A DNA stretch of 64,000 bases, from the sequence record PQ306573.1; one strand, given 5' to 3'. Both the position numbers and the translations under genes were made by a program. The stretch is from Escherichia phage vB_EcoM_PTE-Eco05. Below are positions 2,655 through 22,633 of the stretch, one piece after another. Positions within the stretch are counted from its first letter, which is position 1. Each line of letters starts with the position of its first letter. Under the pieces are notes generated by a model that was not told where the DNA came from, made no database searches, and saw only the letters and a program-made list of their open reading frames with translations.

Positions 2655-3102
2655 GAAAAATAAAGCGAAAGAACTATCAGCCGGTATTATTTTCCTTACC
2701 GAAGATAAAGAATTATTCATGGGGCGTGTAACTGGTTCTCGTCCTAAAGGTGCATTAGCTCATCGGTGGGATATTCCTAAAGGACGTGTCGAGCCCGGTG
2801 AATCTCCTATTGAAGCCGCTATTCGCGAATGCGAAGAAGAAACTGGGTTTACACAATATGACCCTGCCTTCCTGAAAGACCTAGGTGAACATCATTACTC
2901 AGACAATAAGAATATACATCTGTTCCTATATACCATCCCTGTAGAGCACGAGCAATTCAGAAACAGTATTTGTAATTCATATCATACATTCCCAGACGGA
3001 CGTCAGATTCCTGAATTTGATGCATTCGCTTTAATTAAACCTTCTCAATGGGAATATGTGATGGGCAAATCATTATATAAGGTGCTCACTACCCTACTAT
3101 AA
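2644..3102 (+). CDS. nudE: Nudix hydrolase
   Basis: 152 aa; Nudix box GRVEPGESPIEAAIRECEEETGF; directly upstream of lysozyme as in T4. Confidence 0.85.
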   Translation: MMSKKNKAKELSAGIIFLTEDKELFMGRVTGSRPKGALAHRWDIPKGRVEPGESPIEAAIRECEEETGFTQYDPAFLKDLGEHHYSDNKNIHLFLYTIPVEHEQFRNSICNSYHTFPDGRQIPEFDAFALIKPSQWEYVMGKSLYKVLTTLL

Positions 3103-3108
3103 GTAATA

Positions 3109-3136
3109 AATACCTCCTATAAACATGGGAGGTATT
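3109..3136 (+). promoter_or_regulatory. RBS-sequestering hairpin (9-bp inverted repeat AATACCTCC / GGAGGTATT) with late-promoter-like TATAAACA in the loop
   Basis: perfect inverted repeat read from sequence; SD GGAGG lies in the 3' arm; matches the known T4 gene e arrangement. Confidence 0.6.
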
Positions 3137-3625
3137 ATGAATATATTTGAAATGCTTCGTAATGACGAAGGTCTTAGACTGACTTTATACAAAGACACTG
3201 AAGGCTTTTGGACGATTGGCATAGGCCATTTGGTAACAAAGAACCCGTCTTTAGCCGTAGCTAAAGCTGAACTTGACAGAATGATCGGTCGTAAATGCAA
3301 CGGTACAATTACCCTTGATGAGGCTGAAAAGCTATTTAACGAAGACGTTGATAAAGCCGTTCGCGGAATCTTGGGTAATGCTAAACTTAAACCGGTATAT
3401 GATTCTTTAGATGCGGTTCGTCGATGTGCATTGGTCAATATGGTCTTCCAAATGGGTGTAGCAGGCGTCGCTGGTTTTACTAATTCTCTTCGTATGCTTC
3501 AACAGAAACGTTGGGATGAAGCGGCAGTAAATCTAGCCCAATCTAAATGGTATCGTCAGACACCTAATCGCGCGAAACGCGTAATCTCAACATTTAAAAC
3601 AGGAACTTGGAAAGCGTATATATGA
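3137..3625 (+). CDS. e: lysozyme (T4 endolysin)
   Basis: [23 protein letters not shown]... near-identical to T4 lysozyme over full length. Confidence 0.97.
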
Positions 3626-3903
3626 AAACATATAGTGAATTTTTATCAGAATCTATTCTTAGCGAAGCTACCGACACATTTGCAACTAAGCTAGGTGCAG
3701 CTTTGGTTGAAGCCGAAAGTCTATTAGCACGTATTTCTGAACTTGCTAGTAAGATAGATACTCGCAAATTTGAACGTACCAGCGATATCGCTAAGCTTGA
3801 AGCCTTGTTACGTATGTGCGATAAACCGGAAGAAATCGCTAAGAACGGCTCGCTGATGAAACAACGTCTTGAAAAATATATTTCAGGCGCTTCAGAAAAA
3901 TAG
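3622..3903 (+). CDS. internal-protein-like with capsid targeting sequence
   Basis: N-terminus [10 protein letters not shown] resembles T4 CTS MKTYQEFIAE; ATGA overlap with e stop. Confidence 0.55.
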
Positions 3904-3904
3904 T

Positions 3905-3934
3905 GTTTACTTCCTCCAAGGACTTTGATACTAT
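3905..3934 (+). promoter_or_regulatory. T4-type early promoter (GTTTAC, 18-nt spacer, TACTAT)
   Basis: GTTTAC at 3905-3910, TACTAT at 3929-3934; 10-bp inverted repeat TTCCTCCAAG / CTTGGAGGAA (3911-3920 / 3950-3959) pairs spacer with the denV SD. Confidence 0.5.
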
Positions 3935-3961
3935 ACATTCATCAACTACTTGGAGGAAATT

Positions 3962-4375
3962 ATGACTCGTATCAATTTAACACTTGTTTCTGAACTGACC
4001 GACCAACATCTTATGGCTGAGTATCGTGAATTACCACGCGTATTTGGTGCAGTCCGTAAACATGTTCAAAACGGTAAACGTGTAAAGGATTTTAAAATCT
4101 CTCCAACATTTATCTTAGGCGCAGGTCATGTAACATTCTTTTACGACAAACTCGAATTTTTACGTTTACGTCAAATCGAGCTAATCGCCGAATGTTTGAA
4201 ACGTGGTTTCAAAATCAAGGACACGACTGTCCAGGATATTTCCGACATCCCTGCCGAATTTCGTAATAATTATGTCCCGTCCGAAGCGTCCATTGCGATA
4301 AGTCAAGCACGCTTAGATGAAAAAATTGCTCAACGTCCGACTTGGTACAAATACTATGGTAAATCAATTTACTAA
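3962..4375 (+). CDS. denV: endonuclease V, pyrimidine-dimer DNA glycosylase
   Basis: [34 protein letters not shown]... near-identical to T4 endo V. Confidence 0.95.
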
Positions 4376-4381
4376 GGAAAA

Positions 4382-4642
4382 ATGAAAATGTATCAAGAAT
4401 TTATCATTGAAGCAGATGCCAAAGGTCCTAAATTTAAAGTTAAAGCTTTCATTGGTGATGCGGAAGATTTTGGCTCATTAAAACGTAATGGGTACTTTTT
4501 CTTAGGTGGCGATGGTAAAGAAATCAACACCTATGCAAAACGTAGTGAAATTGCTTATGTTGTAGCAAGTCCTAAAGTAGATGTTGACGATATTGGATAC
4601 GATTTTAACAACTTCGGAATTATTTCTGGCGGTAAAGCTTAA
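4382..4642 (+). CDS. internal protein with CTS
   Basis: N-terminus MKMYQEFIIEA. Confidence 0.65.
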   Translation: MKMYQEFIIEADAKGPKFKVKAFIGDAEDFGSLKRNGYFFLGGDGKEINTYAKRSEIAYVVASPKVDVDDIGYDFNNFGIISGGKA

Positions 4643-4705
4643 ATTGTTTACGCTTAAGTATTAATATGGTATAATTACTCTATCAAAACAAACAAGGAAA
4701 CAAAA

Positions 4706-5284
4706 ATGAAAACATATAAAGAATTTATCGCCGAGGCCTTTGCAGGAAAAGCTCAAGGCATTAATAAGGACGAGTGGACTTATCGTGGCGGAAACGGCTT
4801 TGACCCTAAAACAGCTCCTATTGAACGGTACTTAGCTACAAAGGCTTCCGACTTTAAAGCCTTCGCTTGGGAAGGACTTCGCTGGCGTAACGATCTAAAT
4901 ATTGAAGTTGACGGTCTTAAATTTGCTCATATTGAAGATGTTGTTGCTAGTAACTTAGACGCAGCTTTTGTTAAAGCCGACAGTGACCTTCGTCGTTGGA
5001 ATTTAAAACTGTTCTCTAAACAAAAAGGCCCGAAGTTTGTGCCTAAAGCCGGTAAATGGGTTATTGATAATAAATTAGCTAAGGCTGTCAACTACGCTGG
5101 TCTTGAATTCGCCAAACACAAATCATCATGGAGAAGTCTTGATGCAATGGCTTTCCGTAAAGAATTTGCCGATGTTATGACTAAAGGCGGCTTTAAGGCA
5201 GAAATAGATACCTCTAAAGGTACGTTTAAAGACGCTAATGTTCAGTACGCTTACGCCGTTGCCAATGCAGCCCGTAATTCCTAA
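4706..5284 (+). CDS. internal protein, IPIII-like
   Basis: N-terminus MKTYKEFIAEA; 192 aa, similar in size to T4 IPIII. Confidence 0.7.
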   Translation: MKTYKEFIAEAFAGKAQGINKDEWTYRGGNGFDPKTAPIERYLATKASDFKAFAWEGLRWRNDLNIEVDGLKFAHIEDVVASNLDAAFVKADSDLRRWNLKLFSKQKGPKFVPKAGKWVIDNKLAKAVNYAGLEFAKHKSSWRSLDAMAFRKEFADVMTKGGFKAEIDTSKGTFKDANVQYAYAVANAARNS

Positions 5285-5325
5285 TAAAGCTAATACTCAG
5301 ACCTATTTACATTTAAAGGAAACAT

Positions 5326-5628
5326 ATGAAAACATATCAAGAATTTATTACTGAAGCGCGAGTGAGTGCAGGTAAATTAGAAGCCGCTATAAATAAAAAG
5401 GCCCATTCATTTCATGATTTGTCCGATAAAGACCGTAAGAAACTTGTAAGCCTTTATATTGACAAAGAGCGTATTCTCGCTCTTCCTGGCGCTAATGAAG
5501 GTAAACAGGCCAAGCCTTTGAATGCTGTCGAAAAGAAAATTGATAACTTTGCTTCTAAATTCGGTATGTCTATGGATGACCTTCAGCAAGCGGCTATCGA
5601 AGCAGCTAAAGTAATTAAAGGTAAATAA
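5326..5628 (+). CDS. internal protein, IPII-like
   Basis: N-terminus MKTYQEFITEA; 100 aa, same size as T4 IPII. Confidence 0.7.
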   Translation: MKTYQEFITEARVSAGKLEAAINKKAHSFHDLSDKDRKKLVSLYIDKERILALPGANEGKQAKPLNAVEKKIDNFASKFGMSMDDLQQAAIEAAKVIKGK

Positions 5629-5741
5629 CAGTTTACTTTCTCCTAGAATTGTGATAGTATATTCATAATTACTTGGAGTGGTAAATACAGAAATGGACAA
5701 TTCATGCGCCACGGAATGGCCCAACCTAAAAGAGAAACTAA

Positions 5742-6281
5742 ATGAGAACATTTTTAACTGGACCTTATCTATCCCTGATGAATGCTTTTACACACCATTC
5801 TGATGCTAGAGTAGAAGAAATTTGTAAGAACGGTTATGTCCCACCATTTGAAGACGTACTCAAGCAGTACTGTACACTTCGACTAGACGGTGGACGTCAA
5901 TCAGGTAAATCGACCGCAGTAACTAATTTTGCTGTTAATTGGCTATATGATGGTGGAACAGTTATTGTTCTTTCTAATACTTCAGCTTATGCTAAAATTT
6001 CTGCTGGCAACATTAAAAAAGAATTTTCTCGTTATTCTAGCGATGATATTCGATTCCGTTTATTTACTGATTCTGTTCGTAGTTTTATTGGCAATGAAGG
6101 TTCTAAATTCCGTGGATTAACGCTTTCTCGTATTCTGTACATAATTGACGAGCCTATTAAAGCTCCTGATATGGATAAGATTTACAATGTCCATATTAAA
6201 ACAGTCCAACACTGTTGCAAAAGCAAATATTGCATCGGCGGTATTGCTCGTCCTCAATTTTTTGTGATTGGAATGCAATGA
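5742..6281 (+). CDS. hypothetical protein with P-loop-like GRQSGKST
   Basis: 179-aa ORF; Walker A-like motif. Confidence 0.5.
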   Translation: MRTFLTGPYLSLMNAFTHHSDARVEEICKNGYVPPFEDVLKQYCTLRLDGGRQSGKSTAVTNFAVNWLYDGGTVIVLSNTSAYAKISAGNIKKEFSRYSSDDIRFRLFTDSVRSFIGNEGSKFRGLTLSRILYIIDEPIKAPDMDKIYNVHIKTVQHCCKSKYCIGGIARPQFFVIGMQ

Positions 6282-6586
6282 TGACCACTATTGAAGTTTT
6301 TGAGTATTGTTATAACAGCCCAGTATGCAATAAAAGGGCTCTTGTAGAAAATTATGAGATTTACCATTTTAAACCTAAACGATATCGTTTGACTAAAGGT
6401 CCGTTCGCAGGGCAGCAGGTTCTTTGTACTGCTCCTAATGCACGGTTGATGACTAGTATTCCGCATTTCAAAATGGAATTTATTGATGGGCCATTTAAGG
6501 GATTAATCACTCAAAGTTTAATGGCGTTTAATTCCGTCCCATTTTTGATTAAAGAAAAAACTTGGATAAATTTATTTTCTAATTGA
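6278..6586 (+). CDS. hypothetical protein
   Basis: ATGA overlap with previous stop; 102 aa. Confidence 0.45.
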   Translation: MMTTIEVFEYCYNSPVCNKRALVENYEIYHFKPKRYRLTKGPFAGQQVLCTAPNARLMTSIPHFKMEFIDGPFKGLITQSLMAFNSVPFLIKEKTWINLFSN

Positions 6587-6592
6587 GGTTAT

Positions 6593-6955
6593 ATGAAAGC
6601 ATATCAAATTCTTGAAGGTGCACATAAAGGCACTATTTATTTTGAAGACGGTACTCAAGCCCGGATTATTGTCTCTAAGACTTTTAAAGAAGACGCTATT
6701 GTAGACCCGGAAATTTTCTACGGTTTGCATGCCCGTGAAATTGAAATTGAACATCAACCTAAAGTTAAAATTGAAGGTGGTCAACATCTGAACGTTAACG
6801 TTCTGCGTCGTGAAACTCTGGAAGATGCAGTTAAGCATCCGGAAAAATATCCGCAGCTGACCATTCGTGTATCCGGTTATGCAGTTCGCTTTAACTCTCT
6901 GACTCCGGAACAGCAGCGCGACGTTATCGCTCGTACCTTTACTGAGAGTCTATAA
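6593..6955 (+). CDS. autonomous glycyl-radical cofactor GrcA/YfiD-like protein
   Basis: C-terminal ~57 aa [59 protein letters not shown] matches E. coli GrcA including the RVSGY glycyl-radical motif. Confidence 0.85.
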
Positions 6956-7179
6956 TGGCTAAATTGATTATAGAAGGGTCTGAAGATGTTTTAAAATGTT
7001 TTGCCGCCTGGTTTAGTTGCTCAGGCGAGCAATCATTCATTGAAGCATTTAGAATGGGTGATATTACTGGAAACTATCCGACAACTGATATCACTGTACG
7101 TGGATATGGTATTAATGAGCCTATCCAATTGGTCGAATATGACCTTGCCACCGATGAGGAAATTCCTTATGTCGATTGA
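6955..7179 (+). CDS. hypothetical protein
   Basis: 74-aa ORF. Confidence 0.45.
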   Translation: MAKLIIEGSEDVLKCFAAWFSCSGEQSFIEAFRMGDITGNYPTTDITVRGYGINEPIQLVEYDLATDEEIPYVD

Positions 7180-7435
7180 AGACATCAAAGGCTACAAGCC
7201 GCATACCGATGATAAAATCGGTAAAGTGAACGCTATTAAAGATGCCGAAGTCCGTCTTGGATTGATGTTTGATGCTCTGATTGAAGAAGCATATATCTTG
7301 AAAGAAAATGAAACAGAGCAACAAACCAAAGAAGATATGGATGCAGTGCAGGCTCTTAAGTATGCTAAGCAACATCTAAAAGAAGCCAGCATGTGGGCAT
7401 GTCGTGCGGTATTTCGACCTGAGGAAAAATACTAA
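7170..7435 (+). CDS. hypothetical small helical protein
   Basis: 88 aa from ATG 7170; the track's longer ORF starts further upstream. Confidence 0.45.
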
Positions 7436-7650
7436 TGGCTTCTACTATTACTGGGTTATTGGACTTCCAAGAAAAGGTCAACAAAATTTGTAGTGAATAC
7501 TTAAAGTATCTTGAAGAAGACCTTGAAGACTGTAAGGAAGAAGGCGAAGAAGACTATGCTGACCAGCGTCGTCGCCAAATCGAAGAGATGAGGCATTTCG
7601 CCAATATAGTATCTAAAGAATCCTGGGCTTTAACTCCATTTTATCAATAA
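7435..7650 (+). CDS. hypothetical acidic protein
   Basis: 71-aa ORF. Confidence 0.5.
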   Translation: MASTITGLLDFQEKVNKICSEYLKYLEEDLEDCKEEGEEDYADQRRRQIEEMRHFANIVSKESWALTPFYQ

Positions 7651-7654
7651 AGTA

Positions 7655-7704
7655 GTTTACTTCTCCTCTAGTTGTGTTACTATAGACCTGTCAACTAGAG
7701 GAGA
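7655..7704 (+). promoter_or_regulatory. early promoter (GTTTAC, 17 nt, TG-extended TACTAT) inside a perfect 13-bp inverted repeat that contains the regB SD
   Basis: TCTCCTCTAGTTG (7662-7674) / CAACTAGAGGAGA (7692-7704); -10 lies in the 17-nt loop. Confidence 0.6.
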
Positions 7705-7711
7705 AATCAAA

Positions 7712-8170
7712 ATGACTATCAATTCGGATGTTTTTATCCGCCGTAATAAACTCCGTCGAATCTTTGAAACGGAGTTCCGCAAAATAAATGCCGGTATAAA
7801 AGATGCTGCAAAGTCTCTTGGACTACCAGGCTTTCATATCAAGTATTCTCAACATCTCTTAGATCGTGCCATCCAGAGAGAAATAGATGAGAATTACGTT
7901 TTTGAATTATTTCATAAAGTAAAAAATCACGTTAAAGAAGTTGCAGAATTTTTATCAATGCCGGCACGTCCGGATGTTGATGAAGATTTTGTCGAAGGTG
8001 TCGAATATCGCCCAGGCCGTTTAGAAATAACTGACGGAAATCTTTGGTTAGGACTTACAGTTTGTCGCGAAAATCCGGCATTCAAAATGAAGACTCTTCA
8101 ATGTAGAATGGCTATTATTAACAGTAAACGACTACCAGGAAAAGCTTCTAAAGCAGTGATTAAAATCTAG
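7712..8170 (+). CDS. regB: RegB endoribonuclease
   Basis: MTINSDVFIRRNKLRR...HLLDRAIQREIDE...LQCRMAIINSKRLPGKASKAVIK close to T4 RegB. Confidence 0.93.
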   Translation: MTINSDVFIRRNKLRRIFETEFRKINAGIKDAAKSLGLPGFHIKYSQHLLDRAIQREIDENYVFELFHKVKNHVKEVAEFLSMPARPDVDEDFVEGVEYRPGRLEITDGNLWLGLTVCRENPAFKMKTLQCRMAIINSKRLPGKASKAVIKI

Positions 8171-8178
8171 AGGTAAAC

Positions 8179-8721
8179 ATGAGAAAAGCACTACTCGCTG
8201 GTCTATTTGCTCTTTCGTTATCAGCACATAGCTCCGAGCATACTTTTAGTAATGTCCAACTCGATAACTTGAATTATGCTTATCAGTTTGGGGAACAGTT
8301 TTCTAAGGACGGAAAATTTAAAACGCATGAAAATATGCATAAGAAAGGACTTGGATACATAATGGCCGCAATACTATGGCAGGAATCATCTGCCGGTATT
8401 AATCTTAAAGATAAGAAAGGTCACCATGCGTATGGAATGTTCCAAAATTATCTACCAACAATGAGGGCAAGAATTAACCAGCTTGGTTATAATATGTCTG
8501 ATGCCCAAATTAAGAAAATGCTATCTAAGCGGTCTAATTCAGCCAGATGGGCTTATATCGAATTTTCTTATTGGTTAAATATACATAATGGGGATATAAG
8601 AAAAGCTATATCCTCATATAATGCAGGATGGAAGACAAGTGCTGGAAGTAAATATGCTTCTGAAGTCCTAGAAAAGGCTAATTACCTTAAATCAAATAAA
8701 CTACTGGAAATAAAAGAATGA
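8179..8721 (+). CDS. secreted lytic-transglycosylase-like protein
   Basis: signal peptide MRKALLAGLFALSLSAHS; WQESS...YGMFQ resembles SLT-domain motifs. Confidence 0.55.
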   Translation: MRKALLAGLFALSLSAHSSEHTFSNVQLDNLNYAYQFGEQFSKDGKFKTHENMHKKGLGYIMAAILWQESSAGINLKDKKGHHAYGMFQNYLPTMRARINQLGYNMSDAQIKKMLSKRSNSARWAYIEFSYWLNIHNGDIRKAISSYNAGWKTSAGSKYASEVLEKANYLKSNKLLEIKE

Positions 8722-9065
8722 CCAAAATGTTGGCTTTAATAGTTGGCTTGGTTTCATTTAACGCTCTTGCTAATACTACATATACTGATGTAACGGAGTA
8801 TACAAACAGAACGGCGTCTGATTATTGTGGTAAAAGTCGAGAGTGTAAAGTAGATTTTTCACAAAAATTGTTATATGCGTATAAAGACGGAGAAAAAGAT
8901 GGGGTGTCTAGTAGGTTCAAGGCGTCTACCTTAATTAAAAGATACTATAAAAAATGGCAAATATTAGAATGCTCGGTGGCGGAACCTAAAGATAAGGCAG
9001 CATGCAATTCTATGGTGGACCGTCTAGTTGACTCTTATACTAGAGGACTTGCAGCAAGTGATTAA
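8718..9065 (+). CDS. small secreted protein
   Basis: N-terminal signal-like MTKMLALIVGLVSFNALA; 115 aa. Confidence 0.5.
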   Translation: MTKMLALIVGLVSFNALANTTYTDVTEYTNRTASDYCGKSRECKVDFSQKLLYAYKDGEKDGVSSRFKASTLIKRYYKKWQILECSVAEPKDKAACNSMVDRLVDSYTRGLAASD

Positions 9066-9522
9066 AAACTATATCAAGGGCGATATTGTCGCCCTGTTTT
9101 CTAAAGGTAATAATATTGCTCACGGGTGTAATTGTTTTCATACAATGGGCGCTGGTGTGGCAGGACAATTAGCAAAGGCTTATCCAAAAATTCTGGAAGC
9201 CGATAAACTTCAAACCGAATTCGGAGACAAGTCTAAACTCGGGACTTATTCGGTTTATGAAAAATATTTTAAGACCCATAAAGCTTATTGCTTTAATCTT
9301 TATACACAGTTTGAGCCGGGACCTAATTTTGAGTACTCTGCTTTAATGAATTGTATAATAGAATTAAATGAATTCGGAAAGAATAAGATAACAAAGCCTG
9401 TAATTTATATGCCAAGAATTGGTGCAGGTATTGGTGGTGGAAACTGGGATGTCATCGAAGAGATTTTAGATACGTATTCCACTAAACTAGAAATTGTGAT
9501 TGTTGATTGGGAACCTAAATGA
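9028..9522 (+). CDS. macro-domain (ADP-ribose-binding/processing) protein
   Basis: GCNCFHTMGAGVAGQ and PRIGAGIGGGNW resemble macro-domain Gly-rich loops; track start is TTG and true start is uncertain. Confidence 0.7.
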   Translation: MTLILEDLQQVIKNYIKGDIVALFSKGNNIAHGCNCFHTMGAGVAGQLAKAYPKILEADKLQTEFGDKSKLGTYSVYEKYFKTHKAYCFNLYTQFEPGPNFEYSALMNCIIELNEFGKNKITKPVIYMPRIGAGIGGGNWDVIEEILDTYSTKLEIVIVDWEPK

Positions 9523-9701
9523 AATTAACTAAAGAAGAGAAAGCTAAACTGTTCGAACTTATCCATGACCTATTGGATGAACAAGCAGCCACCAATGCGT
9601 ACGATGAATATGCTCCTTTAACAGATGAAGAATATCACGCATTGATGGAATCATTTGACAGGAAAGAACAAGAACTCATTGACTACGTGAATTCACTATA
9701 A
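9519..9701 (+). CDS. hypothetical acidic protein
   Basis: 60-aa ORF. Confidence 0.45.
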   Translation: MKLTKEEKAKLFELIHDLLDEQAATNAYDEYAPLTDEEYHALMESFDRKEQELIDYVNSL

Positions 9702-9710
9702 GGGACTCTT

Positions 9711-10292
9711 ATGGCTAGTTTAATTTTTACATATGCCGCTATGAACGCTGGTAAGTCTGCTTCATTACTTACCGCCGCACATAACTATAAAGAACGTGGC
9801 ATGGGTGTATTAGTTCTTAAACCGGCTATTGATACTCGCGATTCAAAAGGTGAAATAGTCTCTCGTATTGGTATTCGTCAGGACGCCAATATAATTACAA
9901 AAGACATGGATATCTTTGAATTCTATAAATGGGCTGCAGCACAAAAGGATATTCACTGCGTATTTGTTGACGAAGCTCAGTTCTTAACTACTGAAAAGGT
10001 GTATCAACTTAGTCGTATTGTTGACGTATACAATGTGCCGGTAATGGCATACGGACTACGAACAGATTTTAAAGGTAATCTATTTGAAGGTTCTCAAGCA
10101 TTAATGGCTATTGCCGATAAGCTTGTTGAACTTAAAGGTGTCTGTCATTGTGGTAAAAAGGCCACAATGGTAGCTAGAGTCACGGAAGACGGACTTCCAA
10201 TTACGGATGGCAGTCAAATTGAAATTGGTGATACCGATAGATATGTGTCATTATGCCGGAAGCATTGGAATGATTTGACAGGGTTGTTATAA
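9711..10292 (+). CDS. tk: thymidine kinase
   Basis: 193 aa; P-loop NAGKSASLL, VDEAQF and Zn-ribbon CHCGKKAT...LCRKH. Confidence 0.95.
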   Translation: MASLIFTYAAMNAGKSASLLTAAHNYKERGMGVLVLKPAIDTRDSKGEIVSRIGIRQDANIITKDMDIFEFYKWAAAQKDIHCVFVDEAQFLTTEKVYQLSRIVDVYNVPVMAYGLRTDFKGNLFEGSQALMAIADKLVELKGVCHCGKKATMVARVTEDGLPITDGSQIEIGDTDRYVSLCRKHWNDLTGLL

Positions 10293-10319
10293 ATACTAAT
10301 ATCTAACCAAGAGGTATAT

Positions 10320-10532
10320 ATGCAGCAATTAAACGAAAGACAACTTCGTAATCTTACTGTAACCCAATTGGATGAAATCCGAAGAGAATTAGGACATTCT
10401 ATTTCTCATTTAAACGAGGATATCCGTCAAACTGGTTCTAAAGCTGATTATACACGCAAGCGCAAGCTGGAAAAATACCTCACAGATGTTAAGGCCGTCC
10501 AAAGGCGAAAAATAAATACTGGCCAAAATTAA
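10320..10532 (+). CDS. hypothetical basic protein
   Basis: 70-aa ORF. Confidence 0.45.
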
Positions 10533-10544
10533 CAGGAGGCCTAT

Positions 10545-10847
10545 ATGGCCTTAAGAGCGATAGCTGTCATGGCGATGCTGGGGTTTTTTGCAGCAACAAC
10601 TCCTATCGTTGGTACTGCATATATCGACCCATATTTTGATAACTTTATGGAATCAGGGATTAAAAACGTATATACTTTGTTTGAAATTCAAAATGTCGAG
10701 AATTCTGAAAAATTCTATAAGTATATGGCAAAGCATTACAAAAATAGCCCCTGTGATGATGCATTTGAATGTCATGAACAAGGCATAAAAACTGCCAGAC
10801 AATTTGCTGAGTTCATGAAAATAAAATTAGAGCCTACATCTATCTAA
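10545..10847 (+). CDS. small secreted Cys-containing protein
   Basis: signal-like N-terminus MALRAIAVMAMLGFFAA. Confidence 0.5.
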   Translation: MALRAIAVMAMLGFFAATTPIVGTAYIDPYFDNFMESGIKNVYTLFEIQNVENSEKFYKYMAKHYKNSPCDDAFECHEQGIKTARQFAEFMKIKLEPTSI

Positions 10848-10854
10848 TTTACTA

Positions 10855-10881
10855 GCCCCTTCCTTATGGTTGGGGCTTTTT
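10855..10881 (+). terminator. rho-independent terminator
   Basis: GCCCC...GGGGC stem followed by a T-run. Confidence 0.5.
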
Positions 10882-10882
10882 G

Positions 10883-20345: not shown

Positions 20346-20819
20346 ATGCTATTATCAGGCGCAAAATATAAAGAAGAAAAACAAAAATTTTATGATGCAC
20401 AGAATGGTAAGTGTCCTATTTGCCGCCGTGAATTAGACCCTGATGTTCAAGGTAACCATCTTGACCACGACCACGAATTAAACGGGCCAAAAGCCGGTAG
20501 AGTTCGTGGATTACTCTGTAATCTGTGCAATGCAGCAGAAGGCCAAATGAAGCATAAGTTTAATCGTTCCGGACTTAAAGGACGTGATGTCGACTACCTC
20601 GAATGGCTTGAAGCTCTTCTTGCTTATTTGAAACAAGATTATTCTGATAATAATATCCATCCTAATTTTGTTCCAGACAAAACTAAAGAGTTCTCAAGAC
20701 TAGGTAAAGAGGAAATGATGGCTGAGATGCTTCAAAGAGGATTTGAATATAATGAATCTGATACTAAAACACAATTAATAGCTTCATTCAAAAAGCAGCT
20801 TAGAAAGAGTTTAAAATGA
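20346..20819 (+). CDS. 49: endonuclease VII (Holliday junction resolvase)
   Basis: 157 aa near-identical to T4 gp49 (CPICRRELDP...HDHELNGPKAG). Confidence 0.95.
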   Translation: MLLSGAKYKEEKQKFYDAQNGKCPICRRELDPDVQGNHLDHDHELNGPKAGRVRGLLCNLCNAAEGQMKHKFNRSGLKGRDVDYLEWLEALLAYLKQDYSDNNIHPNFVPDKTKEFSRLGKEEMMAEMLQRGFEYNESDTKTQLIASFKKQLRKSLK

Positions 20820-22633
20820 AAATTGAAAAAGAAATTGAAGGACTGATTCATAAAACTAATAAAGACCTTTTAAACGAGAATGCTAATAAAGATTCTCGTG
20901 TTTTTCCAACTCAACGGGACCTTATGGCTGGTATTGTGTCTAAGCACATTGCCAAAAATATGGTCCCGTCTTTTATTATGAATGCGCATGAAAGCGGAAT
21001 CATTCACATGCATGATATTGATTATTCTCCTGCTCTTCCATTTACTAATTGTTGTTTAGTAGATTTAAAAGGAATGCTTGAGAATGGATTTAAATTAGGC
21101 AATGCTCAAATTGAAACGCCTAAATCGATTGGTGTTGCTACTGCAATTATGGCACAAATTACTGCACAAGTTGCTTCACACCAGTATGGCGGAACTACAT
21201 TTGCGAATGTAGATAAAGTACTTTCTCCTTATGTTAAACGCACCTATGCAAAACATATTGAGGATGCAGAAAAATGGCAAATCGCTGATGCGTTGAATTA
21301 TGCTCAATCTAAAACAGAAAAAGACGTATACGATGCATTCCAAGCTTACGAATATGAAGTAAATACTCTCTTTAGTTCAAACGGGCAAACACCTTTTGTA
21401 ACAATTACATTTGGTACAGGAACTGACTGGACTGAACGAATGATTCAGAAAGCAATTCTGAAAAATCGTATTAAAGGTCTTGGTCGTGATGGGATAACTC
21501 CTATTTTTCCTAAACTTGTTATGTTTGTTGAAGAAGGTGTTAATCTTTATAAAGATGATCCGAACTATGATATTAAACAACTTGCGTTAGAATGTGCAAG
21601 CAAAAGAATGTATCCTGACATTATTTCGGTTAAGAATAATAAAGCTATTACCGGTTCTTCAGTTCCTGTTTCTCCGATGGGTTGTCGTAGTTTCTTGAGC
21701 GTATGGAAAGATTCGACTGGTAATGAAATTCTTGATGGACGTAATAATCTTGGTGTTGTAACACTGAATCTTCCTCGCATCGCGTTAGATTCTTATATTG
21801 GAACACAGTTCAATGAACAGAAATTTGTTGAGCTATTTAACGAACGAATGGACCTGTGTTTTGAAGCCTTGATGTGTAGAATTAGTTCTTTAAAGGGTGT
21901 TAAAGCTACTGTTGCTCCTATTCTTTACCAAGAAGGTGCATTCGGTGTTCGTCTTAAACCCGATGACGATATAATTGAGTTATTTAAAAACGGTAGAAGT
22001 TCAGTTTCCCTAGGATACATTGGTATTCACGAATTGAATATTCTTGTCGGTCGTGATATTGGACGAGAAATTTTGACTAAAATGAATGCTCATCTTAAAC
22101 AGTGGACTGAAAGAACTGGATTTGCTTTTAGTTTATATTCTACTCCTGCTGAAAACCTTTGTTATCGCTTCTGTAAACTTGATACAGAAAAATATGGAAG
22201 CGTAAAAGATGTTACCGATAAAGGTTGGTACACTAATAGTTTCCATGTTTCAGTAGAAGAAAATATTACTCCGTTTGAAAAGATTTCTCGTGAAGCACCA
22301 TATCATTTCATTGCGACCGGCGGTCACATTTCTTATGTTGAACTTCCTGATATGAAAAATAACTTAAAGGGCCTTGAGGCTGTATGGGATTATGCTGCAC
22401 AACATTTAGATTATTTTGGTGTTAACATGCCGGTAGATAAATGTTTTACATGTGGAAGTACCCATGAAATGTCTCCTACCGAAAACGGATTTGTTTGTTC
22501 AGTTTGTGGAGAAAGTGATCCTAAAAAGATGAACACAATAAGAAGAACATGCGGATATCTTGGAACTCCTAGCGTTGTTCCATGGAATTTAGGTAAAATG
22601 AAAGAAATGGTAAAACGAGTAAAACATGCATAG
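20816..22633 (+). CDS. nrdD: anaerobic ribonucleoside-triphosphate reductase
   Basis: 605 aa; C-terminal Zn-ribbon and glycyl-radical motif RRTCGYLG; contiguous ORF, no intron. Confidence 0.95.
   Translation: MKIEKEIEGLIHKTNKDLLNENANKDSRVFPTQRDLMAGIVSKHIAKNMVPSFIMNAHESGIIHMHDIDYSPALPFTNCCLVDLKGMLENGFKLGNAQIETPKSIGVATAIMAQITAQVASHQYGGTTFANVDKVLSPYVKRTYAKHIEDAEKWQIADALNYAQSKTEKDVYDAFQAYEYEVNTLFSSNGQTPFVTITFGTGTDWTERMIQKAILKNRIKGLGRDGITPIFPKLVMFVEEGVNLYKDDPNYDIKQLALECASKRMYPDIISVKNNKAITGSSVPVSPMGCRSFLSVWKDSTGNEILDGRNNLGVVTLNLPRIALDSYIGTQFNEQKFVELFNERMDLCFEALMCRISSLKGVKATVAPILYQEGAFGVRLKPDDDIIELFKNGRSSVSLGYIGIHELNILVGRDIGREILTKMNAHLKQWTERTGFAFSLYSTPAENLCYRFCKLDTEKYGSVKDVTDKGWYTNSFHVSVEENITPFEKISREAPYHFIATGGHISYVELPDMKNNLKGLEAVWDYAAQHLDYFGVNMPVDKCFTCGSTHEMSPTENGFVCSVCGESDPKKMNTIRRTCGYLGTPSVVPWNLGKMKEMVKRVKHA

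Follow-up and report, generated by a model that had tools for sequence, protein, structure and literature searches.

The vs.6 locus and its protein product

The 64,000-nucleotide stretch of DNA analysed here (record PQ306573.1, hereafter ‘the window’) comes from Escherichia phage vB_EcoM_PTE-Eco05, an RB69-like T-even phage (Mosigvirus). Our subject is its vs.6 gene, whose product resembles the small glycyl-radical protein GrcA (also called YfiD) of Escherichia coli. The gene, its translation signals and the segments that can be distinguished within it are listed below, where GC3 denotes the GC content at third codon positions.

6593..6955, + strand: vs.6 coding sequence, 120 amino acids plus stop; matches to Pfam, phrog_1209, T4 Vs.6 and RB69 vs.6; orthologue of T4 Vs.6/Y06I
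6585..6588, + strand: GAGG ribosome-binding site of vs.6, 4 nucleotides before the ATG and overlapping the vs.7 stop; read from the sequence
6584-6586, + strand: TGA stop codon of vs.7, overlapping the GAGG of vs.6
6593..6772, + strand: phage-type 5ʹ half of vs.6, residues 1-60, GC3 0.24; diverged GrcA N-terminal region
6773..6943, + strand: putatively host-derived patch, residues 61-117; 169/171 nucleotides the same as in E. coli grcA
6875..6877, + strand: codon for Gly95 in RVSGY, the predicted glycyl-radical site; from alignment to GrcA (6OWR) and pyruvate formate-lyase (1H16)
6944..6955, + strand: phage-type 3ʹ end, GAG AGT CTA TAA, marking the 3ʹ edge of the putative conversion tract

The radical glycine corresponds to residues that we take to be G102 in GrcA and G734 in PflB, the pyruvate formate-lyase (PFL) of E. 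coli.

The family assignment of Vs.6 is supported along its whole length. The Pfam Gly_radical domain (PF01228) matches residues 60-101 (2e-18), phrog_1209 covers residues 1-120 (8e-63), and E. coli GrcA is matched through its structure in the Protein Data Bank (PDB 6OWR, 1.8e-42). Residues 61-120 are 100% identical to GrcA residues 68-127, including the RVSGY radical motif, and thus bear out the claim of an initial annotation, made from the DNA letters without database searches, that the C-terminal half is GrcA-like. The N-terminal half aligns with bacterial GrcAs along its full length at approximately 30% amino acid identity and is 7 residues shorter; among 73 aligned phage and bacterial members, conservation reaches 90% or more at Q5, R24, K29 and D34. 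Vs.6 therefore combines a C-terminal Gly_radical domain carrying RVSGY, the size of a small stand-alone protein and a GrcA-type N-terminal half (IPR011140). Judged by this homology, it is an autonomous glycyl-radical cofactor and the orthologue of T4 Vs.6/Y06I, and hence a member of a known family rather than a new gene.

The likeness to E. coli GrcA includes the MxxxxQI start and the ARxIVxK, ED and REx motifs. However, the N-terminal half of the window gene is written in phage codons, and the gene resides within a phage early/middle cluster without the host neighbours ung and eamB. The T4 protein is far closer, sharing 114 of 120 residues (95%), with all six differences confined to residues 1-60. 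T4 and the window phage also have in common the N-terminus MKAYQILEG, the gene order vs.8-vs.7-vs.6-vs.5-vs.4 and an E. coli-type patch of 171 nucleotides. They differ in that the T4 patch is identical to E. coli grcA at 171 of 171 positions, whereas the window patch carries two third-position differences, and in that T4 belongs to Tequatrovirus rather than Mosigvirus.

Homologues are not restricted to these genera. A tblastn search recovered GrcA homologues from 1,588 phage records overall, and T5-like siphoviruses (AKFV33, 1501-1869 of the locus compared) and Krischvirus coliphages (KFS-EC, 1492-1908 of the locus compared) are among the carriers. NCBI lists one phage-type Vs.6 protein of 118 amino acids as ‘GrcA [Escherichia coli]’; the 167,969-bp contig that encodes it probably represents the genome of a T4-like phage included in an E. 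coli assembly. The gene was flagged as a conserved Gly_radical open reading frame (ORF) of T4-like genomes in a comparative paper of 2006 (PMC1524935).

A host-like tract within a phage gene

When vs.6 is aligned codon by codon with E. coli grcA, nucleotide identity switches sharply at one codon boundary, from approximately 50% to 99%. The 5ʹ 180 nucleotides (6593-6772) are approximately 47% identical to the host gene, whereas 169 of the 171 nucleotides from 6773 (E61, GAA GGT) to 6943 (T117, ACT) are the same. Both mismatches, at 6787 and 6865, are third positions at which the phage has T and E. coli has C. Beyond the patch, the last three codons of vs.6 differ from E. coli at three of nine positions; these differences are synonymous, and the codons match the 3ʹ ends of the Slopekvirus and Pseudotevenvirus genes. 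Each of the 5,426 complete E. coli genomes contains the patch at 95-99% identity (best 98.8%), and the two phage T residues occur together in no E. coli allele among these genomes. Both changes appear to have come about in the phage once transfer had taken place.

Codon choice on the patch side of the gene is likewise host-like. Leucine is encoded by CTG in five of six cases (12% in the background of window ORFs), proline by CCG in three of three (19%) and glutamine by CAG in three of four (33%). The initial annotation had drawn attention to host-preferred codons in this half and had proposed a nucleotide alignment with enterobacterial grcA; given the outcome of that alignment, its description proved to be an understatement. 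The GC3 of the window patch is 0.37, a value reached by 20% of same-size ORF windows, and GC3 alone is therefore a weak test here. Specific codons and direct nucleotide identity are the informative measures.

Comparison with hosts (one or two alleles per genus) indicates a source for the patch. The window patch is 98.2-98.8% identical to E. coli, 95.9% to Escherichia albertii, 90-92% to Salmonella and Citrobacter and 85-87% to Klebsiella and Enterobacter. The T4 patch matches one E. coli allele at 100% and a second at 99.4%, which places it inside the variation of the species itself. On these identities, the donor is Escherichia coli. Between hosts, the identities of the 5ʹ half and of the patch rise and fall in step, congruent with species relationships, which argues that the host genes were inherited vertically and that transfer ran from host to phage. 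The phage-to-host direction was rejected on the same ground. An assembly or contamination artefact was also rejected, because the patch is present in more than 640 independent phage genomes.

The two parts of vs.6 have different relatives among phages. In the 5ʹ half, the window sequence is 90% identical to T2, 74% to the Klebsiella Jiaodavirus KP1079 and 44-48% to any host. Identity to T2 is 65-84% in the flanking genes, 90% in the vs.6 5ʹ half and 98% in the patch, and differences are distributed unevenly between the two parts of the gene (18/174 in the 5ʹ half versus 3/171 in the patch; Fisher p = 0.001).

Reciprocal patch searches, which covered 50,697 phage records, extend this pattern. 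The E. coli patch was found at 99% identity or more in 377 records (T4 at 100%), at 95-99% in 265, at 90-95% in 2 and at 80-90% in 107; among the matches listed, those at 80-90% are Klebsiella phages. The Klebsiella patch was found at 95% or more in 110 records, with Klebsiella phages (JD18 and Nispero, 97%) among the matches listed, and E. coli phages match it at 86-88%, again among the matches listed. For example, the KP1079 patch is 93.0% identical to Klebsiella grcA, 84.8% to E. coli grcA and 84.8% to the window patch. It carries the LLDAVEH variant, as do Klebsiella and Pseudocitrobacter grcA, where the E. coli-type patch has LEDAVKH, and GC3 in the KP1079 gene is 0.22 over the 5ʹ segment and jumps to 0.61 within the patch (0.58-0.60 in grcA of Pseudocitrobacter and Enterobacter cloacae). 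Klebsiella Jiaodavirus patches as a group are 93-97% identical to Klebsiella grcA and 85-89% to that of E. coli, and they are joined to the same phage-type 5ʹ half. As read from these identities, relatedness runs along phage lines in the 5ʹ half and by host genus in the 3ʹ tract, which would imply at least two independent host-to-phage replacements.

Host tracking of this kind is not a property of all vs.6 homologues. No host-like tract was found in the Slopekvirus, Pseudotevenvirus, Karamvirus and Aeromonas phages, whose copies are 66-85% identical to every host tested. Nor do the T5-like and Krischvirus coliphages have an E. coli-like tract, although E. coli is their host: identity between their copies and its grcA is 66-71% over the 3ʹ 186 nucleotides. 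Tracking thus appears to be lineage-specific.

Two other accounts of the host-like half need to be weighed against these data. The initial annotation proposed relatively recent capture from a host, and this appears to hold for the 171-nucleotide patch, recently acquired from Escherichia, but not for the whole gene, whose 5ʹ half and last 12 nucleotides are phage-type. Capture of an entire E. coli grcA gene, with a 5ʹ half that merely diverged faster, would account for the near-identity and the host codons of the 3ʹ half, and also for the roughly 30% amino acid identity to GrcA that the 5ʹ half still shows. However, at approximately 47% nucleotide identity the 5ʹ 180 nucleotides are near saturation, and this same segment is 74-90% identical to vs.6 in other phage genera, where the 3ʹ half resembles that of another host or of no host at all. 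A faster-diverging 5ʹ half is equally hard to reconcile with the jump in identity at a single codon boundary and with the return to phage-type sequence in the last 12 nucleotides. We give whole-gene capture almost no credence.

The second account dispenses with recombination and holds that purifying selection and codon adaptation to host translation have shaped an old phage gene. GrcA is indeed highly conserved, and enterobacterial hosts are 86-95% identical to each other in the tract. However, Cronobacter phage leB encodes these 57 patch residues without a change and yet differs from E. coli at 26 of 171 nucleotides, all synonymously, and it matches E. coli at 34 of 57 third positions, compared with 55 of 57 for the window. 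Protein constraint thus does not explain the nucleotide identity, and at the leB rate two or fewer differences would be expected with a probability of 3e-10. Adaptation to E. coli translation does not explain it either, as the T5-like and Krischvirus coliphage copies demonstrate by their low identity. Moreover, GC3 stays at the phage level of 0.22-0.24 in the 5ʹ half but has become that of the host in the patch, as in KP1079, and the T4 patch is perfectly identical to an allele within E. coli variation. An origin without recombination is therefore extremely unlikely.

The edges of the tract bear on how it was exchanged. The tract ends where similarity between phage and host decays, a pattern that points to homologous, or initially homeologous, recombination and not to illegitimate capture. 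In infected cells, recombination between T4 and short stretches of homologous DNA is known to be efficient.

Function, gene neighbourhood and the amino terminus

The biochemical role of this protein family has been described for two members. Oxygen cleaves PFL at Gly734 (PMC8683613). The PFL-activating enzyme (PFL-AE) places a glycyl radical on YfiD or Y06I, and the activity of O2-cleaved PFL is thereby restored (PMC8683613, summarizing Knappe and co-workers). According to the same source, published in the Journal of Biological Chemistry in 2021, E. coli YfiD (GrcA) and T4 Y06I, each of approximately 14 kDa, are the only two validated ‘spare parts’, and the installation of the radical on Y06I and the restoration of PFL go back to Wagner et al. 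2001 (as cited in PMC8683613). YfiD residues 61-127 hold the radical domain, whereas residues 1-60 are disordered in solution by nuclear magnetic resonance (NMR) yet are required for binding to cleaved PFL and for efficient activation (PMC8683613). Time-resolved omics of T4 infection place vs.6 RNA among the early transcripts and its protein in a middle class that also includes vs.1, vs.3, vs.4 and nudE (PMC9697503 supplement). The suggestion in the initial annotation that the protein supports host PflB agrees with the validation of the 95%-identical T4 protein with PFL (PMC8683613), although for the window protein this role is predicted by orthology.

A sequence of events during infection can be proposed from these reports. 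Vs.6 would be expressed early to middle in infection, and the host PFL-AE would install a radical on Gly95 (RVSG95Y). The activated protein would then dock into host PFL that has been cleaved by O2 at its radical glycine. Both of these steps are reported for the T4 protein and are extended here to its orthologue. Production of acetyl-CoA and formate would be restored under microaerobic conditions, which could keep the fermentative ATP supply going, and the formate may feed anaerobic deoxynucleoside triphosphate (dNTP) synthesis by the phage as the reductant of its class III ribonucleotide reductase (RNR). The gene for this last enzyme also resides in the window, and is given for context only.

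20816..22633, + strand: nrdD, class III anaerobic ribonucleotide reductase; Pfam NRDD, 2.6e-171; C-terminus RRTCGYLG

The initial annotation was correct that the phage encodes NrdD, and it raised the idea that Vs.6 serves as a spare radical domain for this enzyme. In the strict form of that idea, NrdD would take the place of host PFL as the partner of Vs.6. NrdD is likewise O2-sensitive, Aeromonas phage Ah1 has vs.6 in an nrdD-nrdG-vs.6-nrdC-nrdH cluster, and a part in nucleotide metabolism was proposed in an earlier genome paper (PMC1524935). However, a BLASTP comparison of Vs.6 with the window NrdD gave E = 2.4, that is, no similarity, and the radical motif reads RRTCGYLG in NrdD but RVSGYAVRF in Vs.6. 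Residues 57-120 of Vs.6 are instead approximately 80% identical to the C-terminus of PflB, residues 61-120 are those of the PFL-specific host GrcA without exception, and the validated partner of T4 Y06I is PFL (PMC8683613). Rescue of NrdD thus finds no echo in the protein sequence, and we judge it extremely improbable.

The Ah1 synteny is equally explained by a supply of formate from PFL. Formate produced by PFL is the reductant of class III RNR (NrdD), and its delivery to this enzyme would account for the order of genes in Ah1. More plausibly, then, the link between Vs.6 and anaerobic dNTP synthesis is an indirect one, by way of formate. The Ah1 homologue of vs.6 (locus compared, 1-2447) overlaps the end of nrdG, and gene order in that phage ties a PFL-type spare part to anaerobic nucleotide reduction.

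The neighbourhood of vs.6 in the window is that of RB69 and its relatives. A megablast search with 6593-6955 matched 790 phage records, the best at 99.4% identity, and RB69 vs.6 is 98.3% identical to the window ORF. The RB69 annotation runs e, denV, three unnamed ORFs with N-termini of the capsid-targeting sequence (CTS) type, vs.8, vs.7, vs.6, vs.5, vs.4, regB, vs.1, vs, tk.4, and PHROG matches show the same genes in the window. Synteny is conserved from vs.8 through vs.7, vs.6, vs.5 and vs.4 to regB, such that vs.6 resides between vs.7 and vs.5. The gene is flanked by unrelated small genes and has its own ribosome-binding site and stop codon, and its product is consequently a small stand-alone protein. 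Its stop overlaps the vs.5 start at 6953-6957 (TAATG), just as the vs.7 stop lies over the vs.6 GAGG. These overlapping stop, start and Shine-Dalgarno signals suggest translational coupling through vs.7-vs.6-vs.5. Scans for sigma-70 promoters and terminators returned hits at chance level.

Upstream of this cluster are genes for internal proteins (IPs), which in T4-like phages carry a CTS at their N-termini.

3622-3903, 4382-4642, 4706-5284 and 5326-5628, + strand: cluster of four CTS-bearing internal-protein genes; identified by their N-termini and by PHROG matches to internal head or virion proteins
3962-4375: denV, interrupting the internal-protein cluster, within 3622..5628

Each of the four IP genes around denV matches a different PHROG family. 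The window and RB69 are 97.5-97.9% identical over 3000-4734 and 5703-10882, and the intervening positions 4735-5702 have no RB69 counterpart (window 4706-5702 compared with RB69 4307-5110). Homology to RB69 breaks off precisely where the 10-codon CTS (MKTYKEFIAE) of the IP gene starting at 4706 is complete. From the position of this break, the mature parts of two IP genes are swapped as a cassette, with the 30-nucleotide CTS-coding segment as one junction. The window IPs of 192 and 100 amino acids occupy the place of RB69 ORF124c and ORF123c.

The initial annotation proposed that Vs.6 might itself be packaged. In this proposal, MKAYQILE|G is a functional CTS that directs entry into the prohead, where gp21 cuts after E8, and the protein is later injected with the DNA. 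The likeness on which it draws is real. M1, K2, Y4 and Q5 are common to Vs.6 and the IP CTSs, and the first 15 nucleotides of vs.6 are identical at 14 positions to those of the IP-like gene at 5326 (MKTYQEFITEA). I6-L7-E8 fits the (L/I)xE cleavage motif within the first 10 residues, and vs.6 is located approximately 1 kb from the IP cluster. The motif MK.Y[QK] occurs five times in the six-frame translation of the window, with four of the five in this region. In IPIII, targeting has been mapped mainly to CTS residues 4 and 7, and Y4 is shared by Vs.6; processing depends on residues 8 and 10 (PMC9026906, a review of Black’s work).

Closer comparison speaks against this reading. Nine CTSs, taken from the window, RB69, T2 and KP1079, were compared, and the IP genes follow the pattern MK[TM]Y[QKS]EF[IL]xE, of which Vs.6 shares only M1, K2, Y4 and Q5. 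E6-F7 is present in all nine CTSs and Glu10 in eight, whereas Vs.6 has I6-L7 and places its glutamate at position 8, two residues earlier than CTS cleavage at position 10. Although ILE|GA does fit the protease motif, as had been noted, [LI]xE within residues 3-12 is common and occurs in 26 of 115 + strand ORFs of the window. It is not present in the aligned Karamvirus, Aeromonas, T5-like and Krischvirus homologues. The match of 14/15 nucleotides was rejected as independent evidence for a CTS, since it adds little to the sharing of four of five amino acids; in view of these amino acids and a preference for AT-rich codons, the estimated chance that the synonymous choices agree in this match is roughly 0.2.

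The start of Vs.6 is, by comparison, typical of its own family. Phage GrcA proteins generally begin with MKA[YIF]Q[IV], T5-like MKAYQNLKS included, and this start aligns to bacterial MITGIQITKA. T5-like phages are not known to have a CTS system of the T4 type. Other phage and metagenomic N-termini read MKAIQIIEDF, MKAFQVMSGE and MYAYQIMSGE, and the bacterial ones MITGIQITKA or MIKGIQITKT. Every member of a 13-sequence alignment has Q5, in keeping with its conservation in the larger one, and the Karamvirus orthologue begins MNAYQILNG, with neither K2 nor E8. An N-terminus of the Vs.6 type is therefore kept both in phages without a CTS system and in bacteria, which distinguishes it from that of the T4 IPs. 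In addition, an AlphaFold 2 model built from the 73-sequence alignment has an N-terminal four-strand beta-sheet (strands 2-6, 15-19, 22-27 and 47-50; predicted local distance difference test scores of approximately 88-91). Residues 2-6 form the first strand of this confident sheet, and their removal would be predicted to damage a conserved domain.

Expression also separates Vs.6 from the packaged proteins. The acidic, metabolic Vs.6 of T4 belongs to the middle class of proteins, and the basic head proteins IPI, IPII and IPIII belong to the late class (PMC9697503 supplement for the classes). An exact TATAAATA late promoter was not found upstream of vs.6, the nearest match being inside the IP gene at 5388; this does not discriminate, as the IP genes here are likewise without an exact match. 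No report of Vs.6 in virions, for or against, was found in T4 head reviews, a mass-spectrometry paper and literature searches. Taken together, the MKAYQ start is probably the ancestral N-terminus of the GrcA family, an ordinary first beta-strand that carries no packaging signal. A functional CTS in Vs.6 is very unlikely, and co-option of the MKAYQILE N-terminus as a weak targeting signal is a shade less likely again. A short N-terminal likeness to the T4 CTS should not be taken as evidence of packaging.

Proposed gene conversion and host tracking

We consider it likely that Mosigvirus vs.6 encodes a spare part of the GrcA/YfiD type, that the gene is a mosaic whose radical domain has been overwritten by host sequence, and that its CTS-like N-terminus is an ordinary first strand. 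The 5ʹ 180 nucleotides and the last 12 would represent an old phage-specific lineage common to Straboviridae, and the internal 171 nucleotides encoding the radical domain would have been overwritten through homologous recombination with chromosomal grcA of E. coli. The same tract in Klebsiella Jiaodaviruses would have been overwritten from a Klebsiella-type grcA, such that the radical domain tracks the host genus. Separate host-to-phage gene conversions of the radical domain are the best reading of these patterns.

Several points weigh against this interpretation. Recombination is read from sequence patterns, with one or two host alleles compared per genus. The Tequatrovirus and Mosigvirus patches could share one event followed by phage-to-phage exchange, and conversion may be ongoing or adaptive or may amount to just two or more past events. 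The function of Vs.6 is assigned by orthology to T4 Y06I, for which our information comes from a secondary source. Finally, the AlphaFold 2 fold of residues 1-50 conflicts with the NMR disorder of residues 1-60 in E. coli YfiD (PMC8683613). One way to read the model is that binding to cleaved PFL or PFL-AE is needed for the N-terminal domain to fold.

Under the stronger form of this interpretation, towards which we lean with some reserve, the radical segment of vs.6 is a host-tracking cassette, and T-even phages repeatedly, perhaps continuously, overwrite the 171-nucleotide tract with the grcA sequence of their current host. A precedent exists in psbA of T4-like cyanophages, where intragenic recombination between host and phage has produced mosaic host/phage genes. 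In both systems a host-derived metabolic gene of T4-like phages exchanges segments with the current host, which leaves host-specific patches and jumps in composition. However, exchange in vs.6 appears limited to one 171-nucleotide tract bounded by the decay of homology, with the rest of the gene being of old phage lineage. The hosts in this case are enterobacteria, and the gene is one for repair of an O2-damaged enzyme. The identity of the gene family and its biochemical role were already known, and as far as our searches show the novelty lies in the host-tracking pattern of the tract; no prior description of a host-tracking conversion tract in vs.6 was found in the searchable literature.

If host tracking is correct, replacement of the tract would keep the spare part suited to the PFL and PFL-AE of the host at hand. 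The tract would also record the recent host genus, being Escherichia-type in Tequatrovirus and Mosigvirus and Klebsiella-type in Jiaodavirus. T4, the best-studied phage, carries 171 nucleotides that are base-for-base identical to a gene of the E. coli chromosome, and vs.6 would thus provide a clean enterobacterial example of host-to-phage gene conversion in a metabolic gene, comparable to the psbA mosaics. With T4 genetics and a marker of 171 nucleotides, the tract would make it practicable to measure how a virulent phage recombines with its host chromosome, and the patch may possibly serve as a marker of host history for T-even isolates.

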